Positions 2,015-62,391 of a stretch of DNA of 64,000 nucleotides are shown here, piece after piece (positions within the stretch are counted from its first letter, which is position 1; the number at the start of each line of letters is the position of its first letter). Where the stretch lies: positions 1-64,000 of the IMG/VR virus record IMGVR_UViG_3300042988_001700; one strand, written 5' to 3'. This DNA comes from a virus. The notes below the pieces were generated by a model that saw only the letters and a program-made list of their open reading frames with translations, searched no databases and had not been told where the DNA came from. Position numbers and translations under genes: made by a program.

Positions 2015-5000
2015 TTAAAATTTACCCTTGATTGATTCTGGGTATGTATCAAAAGTTAATTTTACTTGTTTCCCGTCGGCGTCGTAAACAATAAACGGTT
2101 GAGCATAGCTTGTTACATTTAGAGTAACGCCCTGGGTATGAGCGGCTTTTCCAACACTTACCGGATCGCCAAACAATGAATTTTTTGCTGGGATAGTATA
2201 GGTATATCCGTTATATACAAAAGAACTTCCCCTGTTATCTTCTGCCCATGTTTTGAACTCGTTGTTAAACGATACTGTAGTTCCATCAGACTTATTTGGC
2301 TCGTAAATTGTATCGTTAAACCTTGTTCTAAAACTCCAATTTTCTCCGCCATTACTACCATTTGTTTTGTATTCTTTTGATCCAGTGTTTCCGTTTCTCT
2401 GGTCGTCCGACATAACAAATTTTTCGGGCGGTTTTACTACCGTTGCGTCGATAACGGAGTCAGGGATCTTACCTTGTGATGGATCTATTTTTGAGGTGTC
2501 AATTTGATATGTTTTCTGGTCTACATACGGCTTGAATTCTTCAGTAAAATTCAATATTTTCCCATCGTCTCCTATTCTGTATTTTGATCCATCTCCCCAT
2601 GCTGATTGGAATTCGGATAGATTCATCGGGGAACCCTTGATTGCCGTACTTAACTGCATGTAGATATTTCTTGCGTCAAGTCCACTCGATTTTTTGATAG
2701 AAGTATTTCCATCCTTATCGTACACCAAGAATTGACCGGCTGGAATAGGTGTATTTTCGTCTCCCTGTTGGCTTCCCGCTGGATATGTCCCGGCTGAAAA
2801 GTTGTCGGCTATGTTATCCTGAACGTCTCCACCGTTACCATCGAAATAGGTCTTCCAATCGCCCGATTCATACGCGGCATTATAATCAGTCATGTTATTA
2901 AAGACGGTCCCTTGCGCAACCTTTGTCGTTCCAAATTTATCTTTTAGGAATGATTGAATATCGGGATATCCCTTTTTTTTGGAATAATCTTCTCTCTCAG
3001 AAGCAGTTGCATCATTCCACGCTGCTTGGGCTGCGCCAAACGTTATTTGCGACTTTTCTCCGGTTACTGCGTCGGTATATTCAAATGGTTTTCCATTAAC
3101 CTTAACGACTTGGTTGTCGTATCCATCAGGTTTGTTTCCTTCGGTATCATAAGAAATATTGTTTCCGTTGAAATCGGTAAATTTAAAGTATGTGTCGGGA
3201 TCATTCCACGGCCAATCTATTACGGCACCCTCAAGCACTTTTCCATCAGAATCAATTTGCCCCTTATTGTTCAGCTCCTCTATAGTAGCAATCGCCATAC
3301 CTTCCCATCCCGGGGTGTCTTTCATATTTTCAAGAGAAGAAGAATAATTATATTTCCACTTTTCAAAGATAGCTTTTGATTCCGTCTTGGCATATCCAGT
3401 ATCCCAAACCTTATTGATATAGTCGTTGATTTTCTGTTGGTCGTTAATATTTTCAGACAGTGGATCTATCCCAAGGAATCCCGCTGCGGCGTTTCTGATC
3501 TTATTATCATTTAGAACAAAAGCATGTCCACCCTGAACGTCTTCGGTCCCGAACGTTTCAAAAGCATTACCAATCAGCTTTTCAAGATTCCCGGCGAATG
3601 TATCAGTATTTCCGACCTGATAGGCATTAATTCTGTTCTGTATTTCAGCGGTTATTGCCGCTTTTCCTTCTGGCGTTTTATCATCGGCGTTTATAGCAGA
3701 AGCAACGTCGGATCTTATTGTGGCATCGTTCGCTATTTCGTCAAAAGAGTTCTTTCCGCCACTATAAAGCATCGCGATTCGACTTGTTATTGAATTGTTG
3801 GATGAAGCATCGACTTCGCTTTGACGTTTTAGATCAAGATATTTCCGCTCTTTAATAAGCTCGGAAAGGTCTGGCGGTGTTCCGCCAAACTTCTGAACGT
3901 ACATATCCTGAAGAGTTTTAAGACCTTCAGGAGTGGTTGGATCGTAATAATTAAGCGCCCTCGTCCAGTCAGCGTCCCTTGTCGTCTGGTTGAATTTTTC
4001 GGCTGTTTGACCGTAATTAAAAACGTCTTTGGCTGCATTCTGAGCATTTGACATCTGGCTTTCAGCTATTGTTCCAAGCAGGTTCGAGCGCCCGGTGTTG
4101 CTTGTTCTATCAACCTCAAACATAAGTCGGCGTTTCGCGCTGTCTGACATATTTGGATCATTCGATATCTTTGAATATGTCGCCCTTGAATTGGCCGCGT
4201 CAGCCGCGTCGTAATTCATAAGAAGCCTATCGGCAATCAATTTGTCTGTTGGACTCATACCGTTCATTACATCGACCAGCTTCTTATAAGCGTCTTCGTA
4301 TCCCGTTTTAAACTGACTATCATCCAGCTTTACAGGCTCAACGGGTGTGGGAGCAGGAGCTGGTGCCGGGGTGACGGGTGTCTGGTCGATTGGAATAGTA
4401 ATTTGTGGAGTAACATTATTCGTATCGGTCTTTGTTCCTGTGACCATCTTTGAAACGTCCGTCGTTACGGGTGCCCCAATGGTCATCTGCGGAACAATAG
4501 GAGTGGTTGGAGTAACGGCACCTATCGCTGTTTTTGTCTCTACAGGTGGCTTCGGTAATGCGAGAGAAGGGTTATCCATTATCCTTTGAAGGTCGTTTGG
4601 CGCTACGGTAGCCGGTGAATTATATGAGTTAAAGACTGGCGGAAGAATGGAATTTGTCGGTGTTGTTGGGTTAATTACTTCGTTTGGAACTGTTTTTGGT
4701 GGCGTGTAATTTGCGTAAGAAGGAATCATATCAAGGTTATGCTGTTCGGTTGGGTTTAATCCACCCTCTTTAAACCCGGGCAAGCCATTTTTCTCAATCT
4801 GTGAAAGTTGTCGTTGCTGATCTTCTGTTTTTGGGACAACCAACCCCTTGGTTTGATCGGCTGGAATTATCTGTCTTCCGCCAATAACGTCAAAACCAAG
4901 TTCTCCCTCATGATAGACTGCCGGTTTCTTCCCCGAAAAATCAATTGCTGCCGGTTTGTCTGGTTCAACTACACCATTCGCCCCGGAACCAGTGTAAAAA

Positions 5001-5137
5001 GGAGCATTGTTCTGCATAGCTCCATTAAATGGGATCGTATTTCCATTCCGCCTACCCCCGGAGCCTATAATCGTAACCTGGTCAGGCACCGCCTTCGTCT
5101 GCTTCATGTAATCTTTAGCCCATTTTGGTCTATCCAT
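2015..5137 (-). CDS. Large probable internal virion protein, 1040 aa
   Basis: Pro/Thr-rich N-terminal third, helical middle, GFKEGGLN motif; gene position. Confidence 0.5.
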   Translation of the reverse strand: MDRPKWAKDYMKQTKAVPDQVTIIGSGGRRNGNTIPFNGAMQNNAPFYTGSGANGVVEPDKPAAIDFSGKKPAVYHEGELGFDVIGGRQIIPADQTKGLVVPKTEDQQRQLSQIEKNGLPGFKEGGLNPTEQHNLDMIPSYANYTPPKTVPNEVINPTTPTNSILPPVFNSYNSPATVAPNDLQRIMDNPSLALPKPPVETKTAIGAVTPTTPIVPQMTIGAPVTTDVSKMVTGTKTDTNNVTPQITIPIDQTPVTPAPAPAPTPVEPVKLDDSQFKTGYEDAYKKLVDVMNGMSPTDKLIADRLLMNYDAADAANSRATYSKISNDPNMSDSAKRRLMFEVDRTSNTGRSNLLGTIAESQMSNAQNAAKDVFNYGQTAEKFNQTTRDADWTRALNYYDPTTPEGLKTLQDMYVQKFGGTPPDLSELIKERKYLDLKRQSEVDASSNNSITSRIAMLYSGGKNSFDEIANDATIRSDVASAINADDKTPEGKAAITAEIQNRINAYQVGNTDTFAGNLEKLIGNAFETFGTEDVQGGHAFVLNDNKIRNAAAGFLGIDPLSENINDQQKINDYINKVWDTGYAKTESKAIFEKWKYNYSSSLENMKDTPGWEGMAIATIEELNNKGQIDSDGKVLEGAVIDWPWNDPDTYFKFTDFNGNNISYDTEGNKPDGYDNQVVKVNGKPFEYTDAVTGEKSQITFGAAQAAWNDATASEREDYSKKKGYPDIQSFLKDKFGTTKVAQGTVFNNMTDYNAAYESGDWKTYFDGNGGDVQDNIADNFSAGTYPAGSQQGDENTPIPAGQFLVYDKDGNTSIKKSSGLDARNIYMQLSTAIKGSPMNLSEFQSAWGDGSKYRIGDDGKILNFTEEFKPYVDQKTYQIDTSKIDPSQGKIPDSVIDATVVKPPEKFVMSDDQRNGNTGSKEYKTNGSNGGENWSFRTRFNDTIYEPNKSDGTTVSFNNEFKTWAEDNRGSSFVYNGYTYTIPAKNSLFGDPVSVGKAAHTQGVTLNVTSYAQPFIVYDADGKQVKLTFDTYPESIKGKF

Positions 5138-8600: not shown

Positions 8601-11600
8601 ATTTGTCAAAGACATTGGATATCCTGCAACGGCGCTATTATCTATTGCCGTCGAAGTGATCCAATAGAAGGAATTAGATGTATGACCGAATCCACAATAC
8701 AAATTATCAGATGATTTATCCCAAAGCATTACGCTATCATTGGTATTAAAATACAAAGATTTTAACCATCCTGCTGTTGTCCAAGATGAACTGGAACCTA
8801 AAGATAGCCTTACGTTCGAATCGGGAGTTGCCCCTATTCCAACAAAATTATTTGAATAGATTCCGCCAGCAGCAACTATAGATAATTGTCCTGCATTTGA
8901 TACGCTGAAATCGGAGTAATATGTAGCAGAACCATTATCTACATTATATGTGAGCCTTAAACAATCTCCCGTAGCAGAATTAATCTCTACCTGCTTATCA
9001 GGAGCAGATGTATTAAACCCGAAATATCCGCTTCCAATAAATCTTCCTAAAAGTGTATTATTGTTTGTAAAATCAATAACGGGTTTTGTTGTTGTTATTG
9101 CCGTTATTGTTGTTCCGTTTTGTTTTGATCCTCTGATATTTATTGCAGCCACTGTTTGTCCTAAACCATCAGTTGCACCAAGTATTCCAAATAACATTAC
9201 GGGGTTTCTATCATCTTCTGAAGTGGCCCCCATAATAGTAGCACCACCCTTTGATGTGTCTTGTGTATCTATACTAAAAAAAGCATGTGTGGGCAATACT
9301 GTCGTTATTCCATGTGTTAATCCATCACATGTAAGACTGAACCAATGAGTAGCGTCATCGGATGCCCTTCTGAGTTCTACAAAAGAAACAGGTGTAGGTG
9401 CCCCAATACCAACACGTCCATTGCTACGTATAGAAACAAGCGGAGAAGATATCGAAGTTGTATCCCACAGAGAAATGTTTAATTGAGTTTTTCCATAACT
9501 ACCAGTTTCATATTTTTGAAGACCGAAATTTGCCTGCATTCTCTGGACGGGGTCATTCTCCCATTTCTGCAAAATAAAAATATCTTCATTTGCTATTAAC
9601 TCTTCGTCACTTGTTACTATTGTTCCATTTGCTTGTAATTTTGCTAATGGAGAAAGAGTATTTACACCAATACCAGCGCTCGGGGTTATATATAAATAGC
9701 TATTTGATATAGTTGCCGAACCTATAAATATTCCGGTAGAAGTGTTGTCAAGTATATACCCGGCAGACACTGGAACGCTTGCCGGGGTTGATCCGTCTCC
9801 AATCCCAAAATCAATTGCTCTACCACCAGATCCTGACGTTCCTATTCGTAAAGCGTTGGACCCCGAAGCTGCGGTATACACTTTTAATATCGCGTCAGAT
9901 GCAGCTACACCTATTCCGACCATCGTTCCCGCTGCATCGGTGTATATATTTGAATCTCCCAGCGTACTCGTTGTAGCGAATCTTGGGATTCGGTATTGCG
10001 TTCCAGCTATTGCGCTTGCCGGGGCGATTCCAAGCGTTGATAGCGATTGGTATTTAACGTCTGTTCCATCACTCGAAACAATTGTACCAATAGTTCCCAA
10101 AGCAAGTTTTGTCCACTTTGGTGTTGATCCAATTCCAGCTATTAAATCTCCACGGCTAACAGTTCCACCAGTAGTATCATAATGATATATTGACAGCAAG
10201 TTGTGTGTTGTTGGTTTCCAAGTTTCTGGCGCTGCGTGAACATGGTCTCGCCTTGCAGCGGTTGACGCGCTCCCGGCAAGCGCGGTATCGTTTTCTGTAA
10301 TCGTACTCGGAACAGTAGCGTCAAACAATGCTTTGTATCCAGGCTCAACATCTCCATAGGCAACACCAACATAGTTTATTAATCCAGTTGTTGGAACGCT
10401 AATAGCCATACCAGCCCATGCCGGTGACGCCCCTTGCGCCGTTATCATCATTCCTCTTGCAATTGATATCCCGGCTATAGCGGTAAGGTCTGCGTCGGCG
10501 GCTTGCGCTCCGACATCACTATACGTTAAACCGTGAGCTGCCCATACAATATCAGTTCCATTTGATTTTATAAAATACCCATTAGTACCTAATGCTAACT
10601 TTTTCCACTTTACCGTTTCCTCTTGTGCAGTAATAAGATCACCACGAACGGGAGAACCTGTTATCGTATCTGGGTGAGAACTTGACAACAAATCGTGGTC
10701 TGTTACCGGGGTTGTTCCGTCTGAAGCTATTGTTATTTGACTATCTGTATGAGTTACCGTTACACCGGTGCTTCCAATAATGCTTTTGTATGCCCAAGAG
10801 TTACCGGCTGCATTCACTGCAACAACATTGTTTGAAGATCCTATTCCGGTCAATCCGCCAACAGATAGCGTTCTGTCTTCCGACAATAAGCCACCGCCGG
10901 ATATTGGAGATATAGTATTTAAAGTTATCGGATTCGCGTCTATTCTCGTCCTATAATACGACCCTGTTCCAATATAGGAAAATGAATAATCACTCATTAT
11001 TTCGAACGTATCATTTTCGGCAAGAATCGCGGAAGGACCAAGAACAGCTCTTTTTGCCGTCAAAAAAGACCCGTCAAGAAGATCTGTTGTTCCAAGATTC
11101 TGGAAATATTCTCCTATTTTAATTTGAGAAGTTGGACCCGAACTCGGACTCGCAGATGGACTTGCCGACATGCTGTGCGAAGGACTCGATGATGGTGACG
11201 GAGAAGAAGATGGGCTTGACGATATACTTGCCGATGGAGATTGACTTGGGCTATGCGACGGACTCGCGGATCTACTTGTCGAAGGACTCGAAGACGGGCT
11301 TGAAGATGGAGACGAAGAAACGCTTGTCGATGGGCTACTCGACGGTGACTGTCCAGACGGGCTTGTTGACGGGCTACTTGACGGGCTTGACGAAGGTGAT
11401 GGTGAAGACGACGGGCTTAATGATGGCGACGCGCTGGCGCTTGAAGACAAAGAAGAACTCGGACTAGAAGACGGAGACGGGCTTGACGATGGACTACTGC
11501 TCGGACTTGTGCTTGGACTTGCACTTGGAGATAAAGATGGGCTCGGAGACGACGAAGGGCTATTTGACGCACTAATCGACGGACTTGTTGACGGAGACGC

Positions 11601-41946: not shown

Positions 41947-42189
41947 CTACTTCTTGTTAAGTCCACCACATTTAAAACCCTGGATTGCGTTTCCCTGTTT
42001 AGCTCTCGGAACGCTACCGTTTCCCCGGGTTGTCATATAATCTCTCAACGTGAACGCTTTGGGACCTGCTTGCGCCACCTTTTGAACTGGCTGCACCGCT
42101 GGCGTGTTCGATATTGTCTCGATCGGCAGTGGTCGTCTCTGGATCTTAATCGGCATGATTCCCTCCTTAGTGTGAGTTAAACCATCCAT
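41947..42189 (-). CDS. Small basic protein (likely start MPIK after AAGGAGG)
   Basis: RBS present; C-terminal GFKCGGLN motif. Confidence 0.55.
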   Translation of the reverse strand: MDGLTHTKEGIMPIKIQRRPLPIETISNTPAVQPVQKVAQAGPKAFTLRDYMTTRGNGSVPRAKQGNAIQGFKCGGLNKK

Positions 42190-45100
42190 CCGTCTTTTTG
42201 TGTTCTGTCACCTACTATTGACGGTGGTCTTTCTGGCGGGAGGGGAACCCCATCATTATATAATTTTCCCTCTTTTGCCCGTCTTTCTACGTCCTGAAAA
42301 TATGCTGTGCCTTGATATGAGTACGGTTTTAATTTCTTTAGTGCCGGTTCAATCTTTCCCTGCTCCCACAGGATAGATACAACATTACAAAATGCTCTTG
42401 CAAGCAGGTGTCCACTTTCTGGCTTAGTATCATTCATGGTCCAAGAACTCATTTGCCGTGAGAAATTCTGGCAACAATCATGTATTAACAGTTTTCCACG
42501 CTCTAAAATCCTTTGACCGTACAGTATTGCACCATTTTCATCATACCGCACGTTCTTACGAAGAGTTATTCTGTACTTTCGGTATGCGCTGCGCATGTCT
42601 CCGCTGCCTGTCTTACTGAACATTTCGTCATTAGCATACCATTCCCAGCCCTGCAAATTGCGATACAAATTTCCAGTTGTCTTCCTGATGGATGAAATCA
42701 GTGAGGAGATAACGCGCTCTGGTGCCGGTGATCCAAATAGAAATTCATCAAAAACTATCAGTCTTCCGGTCTTTGCAGTCCAAACCATGAACAGAACACC
42801 AGTATTCTGCGCGCTATCGGTCCACTGGCTGACTATTAACCGCGTACCATTGTCTAAATTGTCCCAACCAATAACAAAATTCGAAGTATCGCCCCTATAA
42901 TCCTTGAACACTCGATTCCCAGACGTAAGCAACTTATACGCTCCCGACACACCATCTATTTGATCCCGCTTCCCAAGAGGAAATGCGCCTGCTTCTGATA
43001 GAAACGACTGATTCCACGGGCCGCGCAATAAAAACACATGTCCATTTTCAGCCAGAGCACACCACGGACGCGCTCTTTCTGTTTTCTCCCCTGTCGGAGT
43101 ATCGGCATATACAACGCGATCGGGGAGAACGTTTTTCTTGAAGTGCATTGTAACAAATTTTCCAGCGCTCCCCTTTTCTTCTTCGATTCCGACCTCAACA
43201 ACTCTCCCGTCACGATCAGCGCATAGCCGTACCTTGGTCTCAGTGACAGCCGGGGTTGTCCTAAAATGTTCTACGTCTGCTATATACAAATCAGCGCCAT
43301 ATAAACCAACCTTTGGACCGGCAGTCCAATCCGGATTTTTCCCGGGCTTCACCTCGCTTGCAGCAAAATCCCAATATCTCAGCCACTTTATACCATCTGG
43401 GGCTTGGTCTACAATCTTAAACCATTCAGGCTTAAACATTCCGCCCTTATAGCTGATATTCCAGTTGCCATGTAACAGTCTCTCCTTGGTAACAGCATCC
43501 TGTGCGCTTAGAGTGCTTTTGTATGATGGATCAGCACTTGGGTTGTCGTCTAATGTAGCAGCGATAAACGTAAAACTCTTTGGCGGCTGCCCGTCCTCAT
43601 CTCTCCAGTCCTCCGGAACCCATATCACCTTGTCGTCCTGAACTGTCATGTATCTGATTACCCCGGAGCGCTCTTGGATAGCATATCCTGTGTCTGGATC
43701 GATCCACCAATCAACTAACTCACGCACCCAACCTCCAATTGGATCGTCCTTGTCTGTCGGGTTGGTTGTTGCCCTCACATAGCACGGGCCGACATATTCG
43801 TCTGGACGCCGGGACCTTGTCACCAAATACCAGAACTGAGCCCTAGAATTCCCCGTCCAACAACACCTTCCATTTACTCGAATATAAAAATTATTGTTAT
43901 CTTCTACTTCTGGACAATAAACCTTACCTGAATACTTTTCAGTATACCAATCGTTTGGCTTTGTCTGACAATGTGACCGCTCAGATACAGATATTCTCCA
44001 CACATCAAACCCAGACTTAGTTCTATGATACGACTTTGTGGCAACAAGTCCCAAGTTAAACGCCATTATCTGTAAATCGTCAATAAGACCAGAGCTACAT
44101 AGCCCAATTGTTATTCCTTTTGACTTGTTTATATATCCATCACCACCAACAAAGCAATCCCAAAAAAGGCGTTGCTGTCTTTTTGAGGACCCCAACAACC
44201 ATTTTGGCAATCTTCTTTCGTGCTGATTTCCGTATGGTTTTAACAAATCATATAGCTGTCGGCTACATATAATAAACGATCCATCTTTTCTGTATTTCCA
44301 CCGATAGCCCAACTCGTCAAGAATGTCACTTATTTCTTTGACATGTTCAATTTTTGTCTGTCGTATATTGACTATCCTACTATTTGTTCTATTTTTCATG
44401 GGGAACGCGCACCCCTCAGAAAAATACCAACCAAGAAACTTTATCCAAACATCAATATTCAACTTATTAATGGAATTAGAATTTTTACCGTGACCACGCC
44501 AATTCGGCATATCAAGTAAAACATCATCAACTTCATTCCCTATAAAATTACCAGACCTTGGAATGTAACATCCTTTTGTTACCTCTTGTGCCTTTCTGAA
44601 TTTCCACTCGGTTCTTTTGTTCGAAGAAACCATCACATTATGATTAGGTGTTACCCTAAAGGATACTCCGTTACGCTGTTTTATACACTTTAAATCGCCA
44701 TCGTAATTAAATGCGTGTAGTTGTTTTATTTTTTTGTATTCGATATCCCAACTATGATTCAACGAGGCGGCCTTGTCACCATTGGATAAATCCTTAATAT
44801 TTTTCCACCCCGAATCTGTTAAAACATCAGTATCTTCCGTCAAACAAAAATGTGTTAGCTCGTCAAAACCGATAAAAGGATATTGCGCACCCTGGTGGTC
44901 GAACCTATTCTTCTCATGCTCCAAATGAGAAAAAGCTATTTTTGCTCCTGAAGGAAACCTGTGCGTCAACTTCCCCTCAATCGGTACGGCTCCCTGGGAT
45001 CGATATAGATTAACAGATGTGTCCCATAGCCCACCACCAATTGTAACTTGCTTGGATGTTCGGCGAAACGTGACGCCGTTGAAGGCGGGGTCGGCAACAT

Positions 45101-46322
45101 TGCGTAATGGATCAAGAAGAAGGCAAAACGAATTATGCGTTACAATGAAGTCATTGCACATATACAGGCCGTTTGGATTCGACACTGTTATGCAGCGCAT
45201 CGGAACAGTATTCCCGGTTCTCTCAACCGATACCACGCGACGATACATTTTTAATTGCTGATTCAACCCCTGAAGAACAGACTTCTTTCGCTCTATACGA
45301 AACAACTTCTCCGGCTGCGGATGCTTAATGTATAGCCGATATGATGTATGGCAATACACTTTTTCGCCGTTTGCGTCACGGTAGAACGGTTCTTTAGGAG
45401 TTATTACGACCGTAGAGCCAAGAGACCTCAGAATAAACGCTACATCATCGGCTAACTGCTTGCTGGAAGATGAATATTCGATATATCCATCCTTTTCGAC
45501 GTGTCCATCAGTATCAAGCAGACCTTGAATTATAGAATATCTATCATTAATCGACGCCCACTTGAATGCGTCCGGGATAAACTTCTCATGCGACCGCCTG
45601 TTATCCAGACCATATAAGCGCATTATAGCAAGCAAATCCTTGCGGCTGTCGCCAATAAAATTGAATTTATACCCCAACCCACCTTTAACACTGCCGGTTA
45701 GGTTATAAACACCTAAAATTTCTTCATAATGAGGGACATCGTCACGATGAATATCAAAAGTTATCGTATTTTTTCGCAGACACCCATTCCCAAGTAACGC
45801 CCCCATAGCGTAAGGATTAATACCAAAATCAAAATCGTCAATAGCAGCAAAACATTGTTCCTTGCACACTGGAATTAGCGGCCAATTAGGTCTTTCTCCA
45901 ACCGATTCTTGCTCAACAGCCCTATCGCACCACTTTTTTAACCGTAGAGTATCGATTACTTTGCCAGAAGACTCTCCAAATATTCTTTTACCATTAACCT
46001 TTATACCTTTTCCAGATCTCCAAGCTAACCACAAATGCTCTGGACCACACAAAGCACTGGTATAATCGTGAAAAGTTATTCTATACTCTTCATCATTAAC
46101 AATGGGATGAACACACTCAACTATTCCAATACTTCCATCAGGATTATTTATAGAGTCACCAACGTTAATGTTAATTAGCTTCTTAACCCCGTAAGGCGTT
46201 ATTATATCAGAAGTTAATGGTGCTCGTTTGCCCGGTCCCGCAGAGCCACCAAAAATTGCTATATCGGCTGTGCAAGAAAGAAATGCTGTTTGCGGTCCTG
46301 GATGTGGAGAAATCTGACCCAC
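42177..46322 (-). CDS. terL: Terminase large subunit with two inteins (predicted 683 aa after splicing)
   Basis: PHPGPQ, Walker A GGSAGPGK|S, Walker B FIGFDELTHF|S, ATTNP, nuclease RYWDFA...DWTAG...DQIDG. Confidence 0.95.
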   Translation of the reverse strand: MGQISPHPGPQTAFLSCTADIAIFGGSAGPGKRAPLTSDIITPYGVKKLININVGDSINNPDGSIGIVECVHPIVNDEEYRITFHDYTSALCGPEHLWLAWRSGKGIKVNGKRIFGESSGKVIDTLRLKKWCDRAVEQESVGERPNWPLIPVCKEQCFAAIDDFDFGINPYAMGALLGNGCLRKNTITFDIHRDDVPHYEEILGVYNLTGSVKGGLGYKFNFIGDSRKDLLAIMRLYGLDNRRSHEKFIPDAFKWASINDRYSIIQGLLDTDGHVEKDGYIEYSSSSKQLADDVAFILRSLGSTVVITPKEPFYRDANGEKVYCHTSYRLYIKHPQPEKLFRIERKKSVLQGLNQQLKMYRRVVSVERTGNTVPMRCITVSNPNGLYMCNDFIVTHNSFCLLLDPLRNVADPAFNGVTFRRTSKQVTIGGGLWDTSVNLYRSQGAVPIEGKLTHRFPSGAKIAFSHLEHEKNRFDHQGAQYPFIGFDELTHFCLTEDTDVLTDSGWKNIKDLSNGDKAASLNHSWDIEYKKIKQLHAFNYDGDLKCIKQRNGVSFRVTPNHNVMVSSNKRTEWKFRKAQEVTKGCYIPRSGNFIGNEVDDVLLDMPNWRGHGKNSNSINKLNIDVWIKFLGWYFSEGCAFPMKNRTNSRIVNIRQTKIEHVKEISDILDELGYRWKYRKDGSFIICSRQLYDLLKPYGNQHERRLPKWLLGSSKRQQRLFWDCFVGGDGYINKSKGITIGLCSSGLIDDLQIMAFNLGLVATKSYHRTKSGFDVWRISVSERSHCQTKPNDWYTEKYSGKVYCPEVEDNNNFYIRVNGRCCWTGNSRAQFWYLVTRSRRPDEYVGPCYVRATTNPTDKDDPIGGWVRELVDWWIDPDTGYAIQERSGVIRYMTVQDDKVIWVPEDWRDEDGQPPKSFTFIAATLDDNPSADPSYKSTLSAQDAVTKERLLHGNWNISYKGGMFKPEWFKIVDQAPDGIKWLRYWDFAASEVKPGKNPDWTAGPKVGLYGADLYIADVEHFRTTPAVTETKVRLCADRDGRVVEVGIEEEKGSAGKFVTMHFKKNVLPDRVVYADTPTGEKTERARPWCALAENGHVFLLRGPWNQSFLSEAGAFPLGKRDQIDGVSGAYKLLTSGNRVFKDYRGDTSNFVIGWDNLDNGTRLIVSQWTDSAQNTGVLFMVWTAKTGRLIVFDEFLFGSPAPERVISSLISSIRKTTGNLYRNLQGWEWYANDEMFSKTGSGDMRSAYRKYRITLRKNVRYDENGAILYGQRILERGKLLIHDCCQNFSRQMSSWTMNDTKPESGHLLARAFCNVVSILWEQGKIEPALKKLKPYSYQGTAYFQDVERRAKEGKLYNDGVPLPPERPPSIVGDRTQKDGWMV
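43848..44846 (-). mobile_element. Intein 2 just after TerL Walker B (333 aa, LAGLIDADG endonuclease)
   Basis: Begins CLTEDTDVLT, block B VTPNH, FLGWYFSEG / CFVGGDG, ends WTGN|S. Confidence 0.9.
45132..46226 (-). mobile_element. Intein 1 in TerL Walker A (365 aa, LAGLIDADG endonuclease, class 3 signature)
   Basis: Begins RAPLTSDIITPYG, ends FIVTHN|S; EHLW, MRCITV and VTHN give the WCT triad; PYAMGALLGNG and IIQGLLDTDG. Confidence 0.9.
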
Positions 46323-57361: not shown

Positions 57362-57476
57362 AAACTTTGTTGGTGCGCCCTTTTGAACGGCTTTTAAGCA
57401 CCGTCTACTATTTATGGACCCGTTAACTCCCGGCCCACGGGCCAAGTGGCGGGATTAGAGCACACCAACGAAATTT
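57362..57476 (-). ncRNA. Putative structured non-coding element, copy A
   Basis: Long closing inverted repeat (AAATTTCGTTGGTGTGCTC / GGGCGCACCAACAAAGTTT) enclosing CCACTTG-hairpin-AGTTAACGGGTCC, which is also found at 60120-60167. Confidence 0.5.
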
Positions 57477-59339: not shown

Positions 59340-59597
59340 CTAAACCCCTTTATTGTTACTTAACTGTCTACTCCACCGCTCTATGTGAGCAGAGGCATGT
59401 ATTGGTTCGCTATCGGCATGTTTTACAGCAAAATCGTGCATCTCGGAAGAAACCTCCAATGCGCTGTTGTGCGATAAGTTTTGAACAACCGCCAGTTCTG
59501 CGCGAATTGCTTCCATCGCCCTGCGCAAAGCCATTGGCCTCATTTGTGGAAGCTCGACATCGACTATCTCAAGTGCTTTTTCTAAGTTCATTCCCAT
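59340..59597 (-). CDS. Hypothetical cassette-like gene
   Basis: GGAGG RBS and ATG shortly after the GTTGGTT box at 59633-59639. Confidence 0.55.
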   Translation of the reverse strand: MGMNLEKALEIVDVELPQMRPMALRRAMEAIRAELAVVQNLSHNSALEVSSEMHDFAVKHADSEPIHASAHIERWSRQLSNNKGV

Positions 59598-59662
59598 GAG
59601 CGCCTCCGAACATAAAAATGACAAAAACTTTCAACCAACGTTCCGCAAACCCGCAAGCCGTA

Positions 59663-59932
59663 TTAAAGTGAAAACCTGCTGCCGCACTCTGGACAGAAAT
59701 TCCACACGACGCTCACTCCACTCCCACCACAAACCTGACATGGCTTGAATTGCGTGTTAGGCGTAGTGCCCAACTCCACAGTTTTAAGAGCGCGAATTTG
59801 ATCGCACAAAATAGCAAAGTTGTCATAATGATAAGCCATAGATTGACCGAGCGACTCTCGAACCTTGTTCTCCGCCACCATACCATCGCGCTCTGTTATC
59901 AAAGCCTGTAATTCTATAAAGTTGTTTTCCAC
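59663..59932 (-). CDS. Hypothetical cassette-like gene with C-terminal CxxC...CxxC
   Basis: AGGAG RBS then GTG after the GTTGGGC box; C-terminus encoded inside an attC-like site. Confidence 0.55.
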   Translation of the reverse strand: MENNFIELQALITERDGMVAENKVRESLGQSMAYHYDNFAILCDQIRALKTVELGTTPNTQFKPCQVCGGSGVSVVWNFCPECGSRFSL

Positions 59933-60212
59933 GATCGCGCTCCTATAAGTTAAAGGAATTTCGCCCAACGTTTTCCGCACTCCAGAACGTGAGGTATTTT
60001 ACCAGTAGAGCTACCCCGCATTTTGGGCTGCGGTTGTTGTAAGATGTATGCGGTTCTTCCATAATTTTCAGCGCGGCTAATACTCGTTCTACACTTTCTC
60101 CGGCAGTGTTGCCATCATGGGACCCGTTAACTACGAGATGTTGGTTATCCCCTTACGGGACAAGTGGGGGCCGCGCCTACAATTTCAAAGAACCGCATAT
60201 TTCTTACAACGT

Positions 60213-60470
60213 TCAGCCAACACTGCGCGACAGTTTGCGCGACGGATGCACTGAACACTCCGCACCCATACACGCACCGTTAAATCGCATATACCCACAA
60301 TTCTTACCATATAAAGCGCAAATTTCGACGCTTGGCTTGTTGGACGCTGCAAACTTTTTTTCCAAATAAAGCCAGGCCGCTTTCGCTGCTTGTTTCTGCG
60401 CAATAGGATAGCACAGCCAATCGTGTTTTTGCTTCCACCACTCTTCGAAACGCTCATCTTCAGCGGCCAT
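60213..60470 (-). CDS. Hypothetical cassette-like gene
   Basis: GGAG RBS then ATG (MAAEDERFEEWW) after the GTTGGAA box. Confidence 0.55.
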   Translation of the reverse strand: MAAEDERFEEWWKQKHDWLCYPIAQKQAAKAAWLYLEKKFAASNKPSVEICALYGKNCGYMRFNGACMGAECSVHPSRKLSRSVG

Positions 60471-60525
60471 AAGAACTCCAAAGAAAAAGTTTATTGCATT
60501 CCAACTTGACAAATGTATGCCGTGC

Positions 60526-60732
60526 TTACACTACTGGTTTCCATTTAGCACAAACACCTGCCTGCATGCTACATTCTTTATTGCCACAACTGATGCAGCA
60601 TGGCATACTTTGTTTGTTGGTTGACTGTTGAGCGAGTACAGCGGTTTTCAGAGTTTGCCACTCCTCGCAATCGCGAACAAGAACGTACTGTGATAAAAAC
60701 TTTTCAAACATACCAACCTCTATGTCTAACAC
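60526..60732 (-). CDS. Hypothetical cassette-like gene
   Basis: AGGAG RBS then GTG after the GTTGGTT box; Cys-rich tail inside an attC-like site. Confidence 0.55.
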   Translation of the reverse strand: MLDIEVGMFEKFLSQYVLVRDCEEWQTLKTAVLAQQSTNKQSMPCCISCGNKECSMQAGVCAKWKPVV

Positions 60733-60792
60733 GGTAAACTCCTACGAAAAAATTTAAGAGCGAAATCGCAACCAACTTGACAAAGTGTGCCA

Positions 60793-62391
60793 TTAACCAC
60801 ATTTAATTTCAATATCATCAAAAACAACCGGAATCAACTCTTTAAACTTTTTAAGCATCGGAATCGTAAGCTCAAGCATCTGAGGATGTGGCTTTCCACT
60901 TTCCCCGGCAGCACGCAACTTAAAAAACTTGCGCCACTCCCTCAAATTTGCAGTTAAAAACATCTCGGTCTTTGTGCTCCTATTCAGGACCGACCGCGCC
61001 ATCTGGGGAGATTCACCAAGCTCTATCAATTTAAGATAGCTCTTTTCAGCGCTCTTGCACGCATCAATCCATACCGAAGCCGATTCCGGGTTCTTAAAAT
61101 GCTCAATAGGATCAATGAACGTAACTGAATTATCAAATTTGTCCTTTGAATAGTTGCAGTTATGAACAACGACACCGTTAGACACAAAATTTTTAAAATC
61201 AGACATAACAGACACATCATAAACATCTACAAACCCAACCGATTCTATTGATACAATTTTATCAAAAAATATAGTTTCCAAATTTTTCGAATGAATTCTA
61301 AAATGACACGAAGCACAAGTAGTTATTAAATTCTCTACAGCATTATTATTGCGATCACCATCTACGTGATGAACATTTAGTCCAGTTTCAGAAGAGCATA
61401 TTTCGCATTTGTTTTTTTGTATTTTTCTATAAGACCCTTTTCCAAGTTTATACAATCTATCTTTTTTTTGTTTTCCAGTATAACGACCCTCATTCCAATG
61501 GTTTTCACGTAAAGAATTTATTTGTCTTTTTACCCTTTCGTCCGAACCGTCCAACCCAGCGTTCCAAGGTTTTCTGCCAATATTAAAATAGCTTTTTGGT
61601 TTTTTTGGCAACTTATGTTTTCTAACCCAACTCTTAATAGCAGACAACCCAAAGCCAAACTCTCTACTTATATCTACTGCCGTTTTGTTCAACACATTAT
61701 ACTGGTTATATAGCCAATCCCTGTTCTTATAAAGAAGACAAGACCCATTTACGGCGACGCATCCACCAACAAGCAACTCCTTGACTGCCACATATCCGTA
61801 ATCAGTATATATTTTATGATCAGCAGTAGCTACAATAGAATACCCCAAAAAAGTATTTATTTTAATAACAGGCTTTACTCCAGAATAAAAAATATCGTTG
61901 ATTTTACAAAATTGCAACTCTCCAGTGCGCTCATTATATTGACGTATTCCAATTCTTTTCCACGAACCATTACAAGAATTTATCTTCTTTTTATACAAAT
62001 CACTTAGCGTTAATCCATAATGAGGATTTTTTGTGGTTAGTTTCATGTTTCCAGCAACACAGTATCTCGTACTTTCTTGCGATACCCCCGGATTCCATTC
62101 CATATCGAATACAAAATCGTCATCAACATGGACAAGCCGATGCCTAGTCCACTCCTGGCTCACGCCAAGGTCGCAAATAACCTTGACACTAACAGAAACA
62201 TGCTCAAGCATCGATTCGTGCCCACCGTCTATCGCGTGACTTTTAACAAAAGAATACGCAGGGTTTATTCCCGGCAAACAACCATCTTTAGAAGACTTGT
62301 AACAGGTCCTTCCGGCCTCCTCAATATGATTAAGAGCAATAAATCCCGGAAATAACATTTTTACAGTGAACTCAGAAAGCATAATATTCAT
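60793..62391 (-). CDS. thyX: Flavin-dependent thymidylate synthase with intein
   Basis: IEEAGRTCYKS, GHESMLEH, RHR...SQESTRY|CNY, ARSVL, ANLREWRKFFKLR, HPQM. Start MNIML overlaps the upstream stop. Confidence 0.92.
   Translation of the reverse strand: MNIMLSEFTVKMLFPGFIALNHIEEAGRTCYKSSKDGCLPGINPAYSFVKSHAIDGGHESMLEHVSVSVKVICDLGVSQEWTRHRLVHVDDDFVFDMEWNPGVSQESTRYCVAGNMKLTTKNPHYGLTLSDLYKKKINSCNGSWKRIGIRQYNERTGELQFCKINDIFYSGVKPVIKINTFLGYSIVATADHKIYTDYGYVAVKELLVGGCVAVNGSCLLYKNRDWLYNQYNVLNKTAVDISREFGFGLSAIKSWVRKHKLPKKPKSYFNIGRKPWNAGLDGSDERVKRQINSLRENHWNEGRYTGKQKKDRLYKLGKGSYRKIQKNKCEICSSETGLNVHHVDGDRNNNAVENLITTCASCHFRIHSKNLETIFFDKIVSIESVGFVDVYDVSVMSDFKNFVSNGVVVHNCNYSKDKFDNSVTFIDPIEHFKNPESASVWIDACKSAEKSYLKLIELGESPQMARSVLNRSTKTEMFLTANLREWRKFFKLRAAGESGKPHPQMLELTIPMLKKFKELIPVVFDDIEIKCG
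61159..62061 (-). mobile_element. Intein in ThyX (301 aa) with HNH homing endonuclease
   Basis: Begins CVAGN, block B ATADH, CEIC...HHVDGDRNNN...NLITTCASCH, ends VYDVSV...VVVHN|C. Confidence 0.92.

Follow-up and report, generated by a model that had tools for sequence, protein, structure and literature searches.

Introduction

Integrons, together with the clusters of attC sites lacking an integrase (CALINs), a class that requires two or more attC sites recognised by a model within 4 kb and the absence of intI, are the closest described things to the phage element reported here, with the promoter-early stem-loops (PeSLs) of T4-like phages as the other comparator. Phages have been reported with 17 CALINs and with attC sites that can be recombined by IntI1 (Qi et al. 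2023, PMC9892861). PeSLs consist of a sigma-70 promoter and a terminator-like local stem-loop and have been proposed to work by homologous recombination (Arbiol et al. 2010, PMC2839356; Comeau et al. 2014, PMC4122927). The element in question is an array of five small units on the minus strand (60776-59340) of the first 64 kb, here called the window, of the freshwater phage record IMGVR_UViG_3300042988_001700. The whole record is 98,488 bp long with 42% GC, carries direct terminal repeats and is rated complete.

An earlier note on this DNA had described the units as an array of integron-type cassettes. Our analysis of the array and of its relatives in other phages indicates that it is not a canonical integron. 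We hold with moderate confidence that it is a row of mobile cassettes without a recombinase of its own, which belongs to a phage-specific integron-like system and is mobilised in trans. A literature search found no paper describing GTTG-core phage cassette arrays.

Results

Architecture of the window array

The five units all point in the same direction and each is opened by a GTTG box (Table 1), which is preceded twice by CAA and three times by AAC. In units 1 to 4 the start box pairs with a CAAC box inside the same unit, namely GTTGGTTG with CAACCAAC, GTTGGA with TCCAAC, GTTGTAAGA with TCTTACAAC and GTTGGGCG with CGCCTAAC, respectively. This complementarity amounts to 8/8, 6/6, 9/9 and 7/8 positions, the last with one G.T in addition, and in unit 3 it continues to 21/23 (inverted repeat I1). 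The box of the next unit is not complementary (mean 1.9/5). The earlier note had placed all of these boxes on the minus strand and had pointed out that a unit's end matches its own start, and we found both to be correct. Boxes of the type AACGTTG or CAAGTTGG are clustered at the array and occur nowhere else in the 98-kb genome.

Behind the GTTG box a Shine-Dalgarno (SD) sequence and a start codon follow in four units, giving four short genes, and unit 3 is the exception that contains no open reading frame (ORF), also as first described. A second hairpin, J, spans the region from the CAAC box to just before the next GTTG. ORFs 1, 2 and 4 read through the CAAC box and have their stop codons inside the J hairpin loop, which therefore encodes a Cys-rich tail. 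Of the four J hairpins that had been proposed, J1 is clear, with arms at 60613-60602 and 60521-60509, one bulged A and a loop made up of the codons for the Cys-rich tail, while the other three have short stems only. The arms of J1 also carry compensatory changes relative to the phage contigs L006 and L009. J2 extends from ~60336 to 60216 and is followed by the spacer TGAAC, and the arms of J4 lie at 59754-59742 and 59659-59644.

Further pairing occurs inside the units. In cassette 1 the 3' arm (60660-60624) pairs with the SD region and in cassette 4 TTATAGGAGCGCGA pairs with TCGCGCTCTTAAAA (inverted repeat I6). Cassette 3 forms a rod in which P1 (GTTGTAAGA/TCTTACAAC) is followed by an AA/CA loop, a 12-bp P2 and P3 (GGCGCGGC/GCCGCGC) around a structured core. 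At the upstream end of the array, the half-site that precedes the first GTTG box is 93% complementary to the left arm of J1 at 60613-60600 (inverted repeat I5, direct repeat D5). At the other end, unit 5 has only a bare CAAC (59469-59466), lacks a convincing partner box and is not closed by a hairpin. In Pfam and PHROGs, the matches of the cargo ORFs were limited to weak ones to zinc ribbons.

We compared the boxes with the attC consensus (R'' RYYYAAC and R' GTTRRRY). One of the five GTT boxes (GTTGGGC) and two of the four AAC boxes (GTCCAAC and GCCTAAC) fit, and the fourth base is always G. The earlier note had called the sites attC-like, but they are not attC sites of the canonical kind. The ORFs also run through the hairpins, whereas in an integron cassette the ORF lies upstream of attC, a compact local hairpin in which no pairing extends outside the R box. 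With regard to the CALIN definition, the integrase is absent and four hairpins lie within 1.2 kb, their status as attC sites being model-dependent.

Two smaller features lie within the array. A 39-codon ORF (59943-60062, minus strand) has its ATG inside the 3' arm of cassette 3, crosses that cassette's CAAC box and J3 and extends into the 5' arm of cassette 4. This frame may have no meaning, or may be one that encodes only a tail. The octamer CGCTCTTA, which resembles lambda boxA, occurs at 60762 and 59792 on the coding strand, both times in a cassette arm, and two more times genome-wide on the other strand. These occurrences are probably due to chance.

The unit design recurs in other phage contigs

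ORF1 has two database relatives, and all that is common to them is a central stretch, (E/A)WQTLKTAVLAQQ(S/T)TNKQ(S/I)MP, the N- and C-terminal parts being unrelated. A search with this stretch led to arrays in contigs of 168 kb (G005), 219 kb (G006), 61 kb and 6 kb, and a search with a DNA pattern for the 5' arm revealed many more, in dozens of uncultivated phage contigs. A unit detector requiring GTTG...CAAC with at least 6 perfect pairs and at least 17/24 found ~120 units in the array loci, compared with 5 in a reversed-sequence control.

The common architecture consists of GTTG-N5, an invariant AA opposite CA, a T-A pair and then 10-12 further pairs. The resulting stem, stem A, thus contains 9 bp, a 2x2 AA/CA internal loop and 11-13 bp, and it often continues with a loop in which TT(A/G)TAGG lies opposite TA(A/T)GGAAG and with a third, GC-rich helix. 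In an alignment of 18 units, which were partly picked for complementarity, 95.8% of the cells in 16 outer stem pairs are paired, compared with 66.5% in shuffles (0/500) and 35-45% with a displaced partner. For covariation this alignment scores 0.73 versus 0.15 and the double-sided changes number 85 versus 28 expected. In a curated set of 37 units, Watson-Crick pairing reaches at least 92% at most of positions 5-9 and 12-21 but only 76-81% at positions 8 and 9, and most stem positions show all four pair types. A test that started from the pattern on the 5' side alone had 16 usable cases and gave partners of at least 15/19 in 5 of them, compared with 0/16 in each control. The start-to-end complementarity is more than the 7-nt integron footprint as which it had been presented, since it forms the base of a conserved, covarying stem of 20-30 bp.

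In the window, unit 3 has the full unit-spanning stem (GTTG-N5, AA, T... / ...A, CA, N5-CAAC), and units 1, 2 and 4 keep a core stem of 6-8 bp together with inner pairing to the SD region. The junction hairpins likewise run from CAAC to the next (A)AC-GTTG, in units that are co-directional and clustered. The CAAC box is read as xxC-AAC in most ORFs and as CAA-CAC in one G006 unit and is therefore a nucleotide motif, not a codon motif; an explanation of the box as a protein motif (Asn) was rejected because it is read in other frames elsewhere.

Among one genome each of 185,579 prokaryote species the units are essentially absent. They were found in three contigs of metagenome-assembled genomes (MAGs) only, which are probably phage DNA, and no relative of the WQTLK unit was found in this set.

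Where arrays start, not behind another unit, they open with TA directly before GTTG, often making TAG (L018 ~3780-3842 and ~10410-10471, plus strand; L027; L103 11123-11159), and this start comes right behind a terminator-like GC hairpin with a T-run. In one 213-kb phage two arrays begin behind the same terminator-like hairpin.

Units are exchanged between phages with breakpoints at the cores

The genomes G000, G005 (168 kb) and G006 (219 kb, 33% GC) have almost no proteins in common, yet they carry related units, which are confined to one cluster per genome. The window phage is thus related in its units to phages with which it has hardly any proteins in common. The contigs L006 (from G005) and L007 contain a 286-bp unit that is 99.7% identical and lies between unrelated flanks, the identity extending from GTTG to ACGTTGG. 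L006 and L035 have only a 121-bp tail module in common, which begins with the AAC of the CAAC box and ends at the GTTGG that follows. L072 carries two adjacent units that are found separately in L035 and L007, and here the homology blocks overlap at ACGTTGGT. In total, ~15/17 of the homology ends inside arrays fall in (A)ACGTTG or CAAC cores, whereas ends outside arrays do not. The earlier note had proposed a comparison of related phages for breakpoints at the GTT boxes, and this comparison bears out its description of a cassette-like array, with both whole units and hairpin-encoded tails exchanged.

Units of the window array are likewise homologous to units of other arrays. Homology of its unit 1 to L006, L007 and L009 starts exactly at 60776, while unit 3 shares only its arms with L029 and unit 4 only its arms with L041. 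In L103, an array that lies beside a recombinase gene, one unit shares its arms with window unit 1, the 3' arm being 91% identical, which ties the window array to a recombinase-bearing one. Other contigs of the source metagenome match 60598-60660 and 59975-60039 and have unlike flanks. Three joints (60040/60748, 60055/60191 and 59790/60610), whose shorter side comprises only 21-36 letters, were not used as evidence of excision because they possibly come from other genomes or from inverted repeats.

In a WQTLK-family unit of the 219-kb phage (L009 ~4104-4200, plus strand), a tandem duplication of ~47 nt that takes in the CAAC box and the left arm of J cuts the ORF short. It may be a scar of recombination or slippage at the core.

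Xer-like recombinases abut arrays in three other phages

L103 (G037) encodes a tyrosine recombinase of 298 aa (PF00589, 3e-35; 10226-11122), and 37 nt lie between the end of its gene and the array. In L194 (G013) the gene of a homologue of 280 aa (34% identical, 7e-53; 2298-1456, minus strand) stops ~45 nt short of the first unit. L302 has a homologue of 268 aa (3989-4795), which only 7 nt separate from an array of at least five units. All three recombinase genes are co-directional with their arrays. The closest solved relatives of the recombinase are of the archaeal XerA type (1.7e-30, full length), while IntI4 matches it only locally (9e-14). The enzyme had been expected to be a host IntI or a recombinase encoded outside the window. 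No recombinase lies in the window or elsewhere in the complete genome, and the only enzyme found linked to such arrays is Xer-like, occurs in other phages and is not an IntI.

The complete window phage genome gave no match to the Xer-like profile A5, for which G037 served as positive control. No serine recombinase, Y1 transposase or reverse transcriptase was found in the window phage or likewise among five genomes, and in G005, G006 and G009, which are complete or nearly so, tyrosine recombinases were absent as well as these three. A profile search with two sequences gave no further recombinase-linked arrays.

In L302 the first unit behind the recombinase (4802-5017, plus strand) is ORF-less and has a long inner helix and a structured core, which places a structured RNA in the first array position. 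L300 (1313-2185) and L301 (3127-3237, both plus strand) contain related Xer-like recombinases and unit-spanning stems with other cores (for example GCAGGTATATTTAG... and GGTATTGCCGAAGG...). In these two contigs the stems sit upstream of the recombinase, and the arrangement suggests sister systems with different site types.

The ORF-less unit

Folded as RNA, unit 3 reaches -73.5 kcal/mol (z -6.6). A search of Rfam gave no family match at E<=1 save one chance match to a small nucleolar RNA, the pattern of the unit 3 core was not found in viral contigs, and the ORF-less cargos gave no meaningful alignment with MAFFT. Two exact 12-nt blocks, CACTTGNCCCGT and GTTAACGGGTCC, are common to the core of cassette 3 and to a solitary hairpin unit (Table 1) next to tRNA-Thr(AGU) at 57567-57495, and are unique in the genome to these two loci. 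CCCGT and ACGGG may pair, and the cassette and the solitary element could represent a small structured RNA that is carried as cargo.

Genomic setting

Apart from the array, the window encodes portal, major head protein and terminase, and all of its long ORFs are on the minus strand. The array has an intein-bearing ThyX gene on one side, from whose stop codon its start is 16 nt away, and a 154-aa orphan gene on the other. No sigma-70-like promoter and no intrinsic terminator were found at the array boundaries on the coding (minus) strand. The sequence ACGTTG...TTATAGG was considered as a promoter and rejected as a sufficient explanation, as it leaves the covariation with the 3' arm unexplained and its spacing misfits sigma-70.

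Table 1 Features of the array and its surroundings (positions in the window).
Feature	Position	Strand	Details
ThyX (Thy1) gene	62454-60793	minus	Interrupted by an intein with an HNH endonuclease domain; stop codon 60795-60793
Orphan right-arm half-site TGGCACACTTTGTCAA	60777..60792	minus	Between ThyX stop codon and first GTTG box
Cassette 1	60506..60776	minus	5' box GTTGGTTG 60776-60769; CAAC box CAACCAAC 60623-60616
ORF1	60732-60526	minus	68 aa; central motif WQTLKTAVLAQQSTNKQSMP
Cassette 2	60211..60505	minus	5' box GTTGGA 60505-60500; CAAC box TCCAAC 60344-60339
ORF2	60470-60213	minus	85 aa
Cassette 3	59970..60210	minus	GTTG box at 60210; CAAC box TCTTACAAC 60044-60036; without normal ORF; rod 60210-60036; J3 at 60035-59970
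Cassette 4	59640..59969	minus	5' box GTTGGGCG 59969-59962; CAAC box CGCCTAAC 59763-59756
ORF4	59932-59663	minus	89 aa; zinc-ribbon tail, weak Pfam zinc-ribbon matches
Unit 5 (terminal, degenerate)	59340..59639	minus	5' box GTTGGTTG 59639-59632
ORF5	59597-59340	minus	85 aa
Solitary short hairpin unit	57382..57472	minus	Just 3' of tRNA-Thr; bounded by GTTGGTGTGC and GCGCACCAAC

The INPHARED phage collection contains no relative of the phage at the DNA or protein level, and the relatives of its portal (L002-L005) lack the ThyX region. Among sequencing runs, the stretch is present only in the source freshwater sample, with two small-share runs covering scattered 151-nt pieces, and no RNA dataset is listed among the runs that contain it. 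The ORF of the large terminase (42177-46322, minus strand) is 1381 aa long. Its matches to PHROG terminases are not continuous, and what lies outside them matches families that are typically seen in proteins with inteins; it therefore probably contains one or more inteins.

Discussion

The recombinase-less row of mobile cassettes that we favour would work as follows. A cassette extends from one GTTG core to the next. On a single strand, its first ~25-45 nt form stem A with a CAAC-ended segment located 130-230 nt downstream, often with addition of the third helix, and hairpin J then reaches from CAAC to the next AAC-GTTG. In a circle closed at the cores, the 3' arm, CAAC, J, AAC, GTTG and the 5' arm would form one long imperfect hairpin with the core mid-way, and the match between a unit's start and its own distal box would reflect this closure, by the logic of integron cassettes and attC sites. 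The folded site would be recognised by an Xer-like tyrosine recombinase, with strand exchange within the AACGTTG core and at CAAC. Whole cassettes, or the hairpin-encoded C-terminal tails alone, could in this way be cut out, inserted and swapped between co-infecting phages. The window array itself would be the integrated linear form of the cassettes, a passive record that is rearranged only in trans, by an enzyme from a phage carrying an Xer-like recombinase or from the host. We propose more tentatively that phages run this exchange themselves, using a compact Xer-like recombinase and translated hairpins, and that whole small genes, protein fronts and tails as well as structured RNAs are shuffled between unrelated phages.

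Several results weigh against mobile cassettes. The complete genome of the window phage has no PF00589 match at E<=1, so that the search for an IntI-type recombinase in the rest of the genome, as the earlier note had advised, came out empty. Of 33 further array-bearing viral records, 31 are without a PF00589 protein, and eight of these are at least 90% complete. The recombinase link consists of three contigs only, and no arrays accompany eighty Xer homologues from metagenomes that are more distant. Among the assembled contigs, to which this comparison was confined, there was no sign of circles or excision products of the window cassettes, or of polymorphism in the population. The 7-nt core is conserved on both sides, and the crossover can therefore be located no more precisely than to this core. 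Exchange of a tail or a loop alone, with the arms kept, is not predicted by a simple integron mechanism and is explained equally well by recombination between conserved arms. As regards folding, which had been suggested as a check, hairpin 1 folds somewhat better as single-stranded DNA than shuffled sequences do (z -1.9), but J2-J4, with their short stems, do not (z about 0). Support thus comes from comparison and not from energy, since only hairpin 1 beats the shuffles. The partial picking of units for complementarity inflates the pairing percentages; such selection cannot create a register-specific signal. Finally, the in-stem mismatches comprise 9 of the G.T type and 7-15 of the A.C type with no clear strand bias, and they point to neither strand, and to neither DNA nor RNA, as the one that folds.

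The main rival, which we consider unlikely, is that the stems are instead RNA elements. The 5' leader and SD of each small mRNA would pair with the coding region of the same mRNA, whether to control translation, to stabilise the message or to allow RNase III-type processing. The conserved arms would serve ordinary homologous or microhomology recombination that shuffles the modules, a mechanism suggested for the PeSLs of T4-like phages, and the adjacent recombinases would be incidental. The paired SD regions of units 1 and 4 (GGAGTTTACC with GGCAAACTCT; inverted repeat I6) are consistent with this, as are the strong RNA fold of unit 3, the conserved T.G juxtapositions at stem positions 24-25, which occur on the coding strand only, the retention of arms while loop contents change and the lack of a recombinase in most array-bearing phages. 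However, the sole sequence invariant of all units is 4-7 nt long, which is too short for homologous recombination, and yet nearly all breakpoints lie there. In many units the third helix is upstream of the SD and does not cover it, and sequestration of the SD is therefore not general. There is also no excess of G.U among the in-stem mismatches, and a homologous recombinase abuts the first unit in three unrelated contigs. The invariant core and the recombinase adjacency thus fit cassettes better than RNA elements, and the stems could serve both site recombination and mRNA functions.

An improbable explanation is that the array is a CALIN, a fragment of a canonical integron whose true attC sites were captured from a bacterial integron and are recombined by a host IntI. 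Its co-directional units with AAC...GTT inverse cores, the hairpin lengths of 83-142 nt, which are within the attC range, and the complementarity between cassette start and end would all be expected of a CALIN, and phage CALINs recombined by IntI1 have been reported (PMC9892861). However, no IntI was found in the window phage or in any array-bearing phage searched, the units are virtually absent from prokaryote genomes, and the linked enzyme is Xer-like, with its merely local match to IntI4. In addition, the boxes mostly misfit RYYYAAC/GTTRRRY, the ORFs run through the hairpins, and the long covarying outer stem is absent from attC sites.

We consider it very improbable that the units are miniature foldback transposable elements with GTTG...CAAC terminal inverted repeats, either like miniature inverted-repeat transposable elements (MITEs) or like the palindrome-associated transposable elements (PATEs) of the IS200/IS605 type. 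They would insert next to AAC and depend on a transposase in trans. Stem A would then be the terminal inverted repeat, and the AAC at both ends of several units and the exchange points that fall at CAAC would be accounted for. Against this, the block that is identical in L006 and L007 does not stop at CAAC but continues as far as the following GTTG, and the flanking sequences do not amount to consistent target duplications. The units of the arrays are clustered and without exception point the same way, and Y1 transposase, serine recombinase and reverse transcriptase are absent in the five genomes searched. Local tandem duplication of one small gene and its upstream region, with box complementarity by chance, is hardly credible. 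In its favour, TTTGTCAAGTTGG occurs twice and AACGTTG three times within 1.2 kb and the ORFs share a helix-linker-Cys-tail layout, but the ORFs have no detectable similarity to each other, the same architecture recurs with different sequences in dozens of unrelated phages, and the detector counts, the L006/L007 unit and covariation far above controls contradict it.

If the mobile-cassette mechanism holds, integron-type gene capture would not be limited to bacteria and IntI. Unrelated virulent and jumbo phages would draw on a common pool of tiny cassettes, using structure-specific sites and a different recombinase clade, and part of the orphan-gene mosaicism in phage early regions would be accounted for. 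The arrays would also represent a natural case of recombination sites that double as coding sequence and allow protein tails to be swapped. On the more tentative proposal made above, they would give phages an inbuilt means of shuffling domains among accessory proteins that evolve fast and possibly act against defence. The recombinase and its sites would be a new compact pair, and the cargo, orphan proteins with zinc-ribbon tails and a structured RNA, would be candidates for functions in host takeover or counter-defence.

In comparison with known systems, the array resembles integrons and CALINs in being a co-directional row of small, mostly promoterless cassettes with imperfect hairpins that are conserved in shape and not in sequence and that have AAC...GTT inverse cores, an unpaired spacer and a bulged base. 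In both, a cassette opens with bases complementary to its own distal core, exchange points fall at the GTT core and the enzyme is missing from many arrays. In contrast to integrons, in which a tyrosine recombinase with an IntI-specific extra domain is encoded next to the array, the phage arrays have no IntI and no recognisable attI, and the recombinase, where present, is compact, Xer-like and encoded in the same direction as the array. The phage core GTTG is at the outer end of a covarying stem (9 bp, 2x2 loop, 11-13 bp) that attC sites do not have, and there are two tiers of hairpins. Moreover, the phage ORFs are translated through the site, so that loops encode protein tails, and these tails also swap alone. 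Phage contigs are also where the arrays occur, bacterial genomes being essentially free of them.

PeSLs are similar to the phage cassettes in that the small orphan genes of plastic regions in virulent phages have short structured motifs on their flanks, which are conserved and coincide with the end points of insertions, deletions and replacements. They differ in that the window array has no sigma-70 promoter or terminator at its boundaries, and in that the pairing of the phage cassettes is long-range within the unit, the invariant core is 4-7 nt long and a dedicated recombinase lies beside some arrays.

Two further systems offer partial parallels. At attP(+) of CTX-phi, XerCD recombine folded single-stranded DNA, and the whole phage genome is integrated at the host dif site by the host XerCD. 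The phage cassettes would likewise depend on an Xer-type tyrosine recombinase that acts on an intrastrand-hairpin site and not on a plain duplex, but here small cassettes are arrayed in phage genomes, the sites are unlike dif and the enzyme is phage-encoded and mostly absent. In shufflons and invertible tail-fibre segments (Rci, Gin, Cin), segments are inverted between identical short repeats within one gene. There, as would be the case here, site-specific recombination exchanges the C-terminal coding ends of proteins, whereas in the phage arrays the hairpin sequence differs from module to module, and modules pass from one gene or genome to another.

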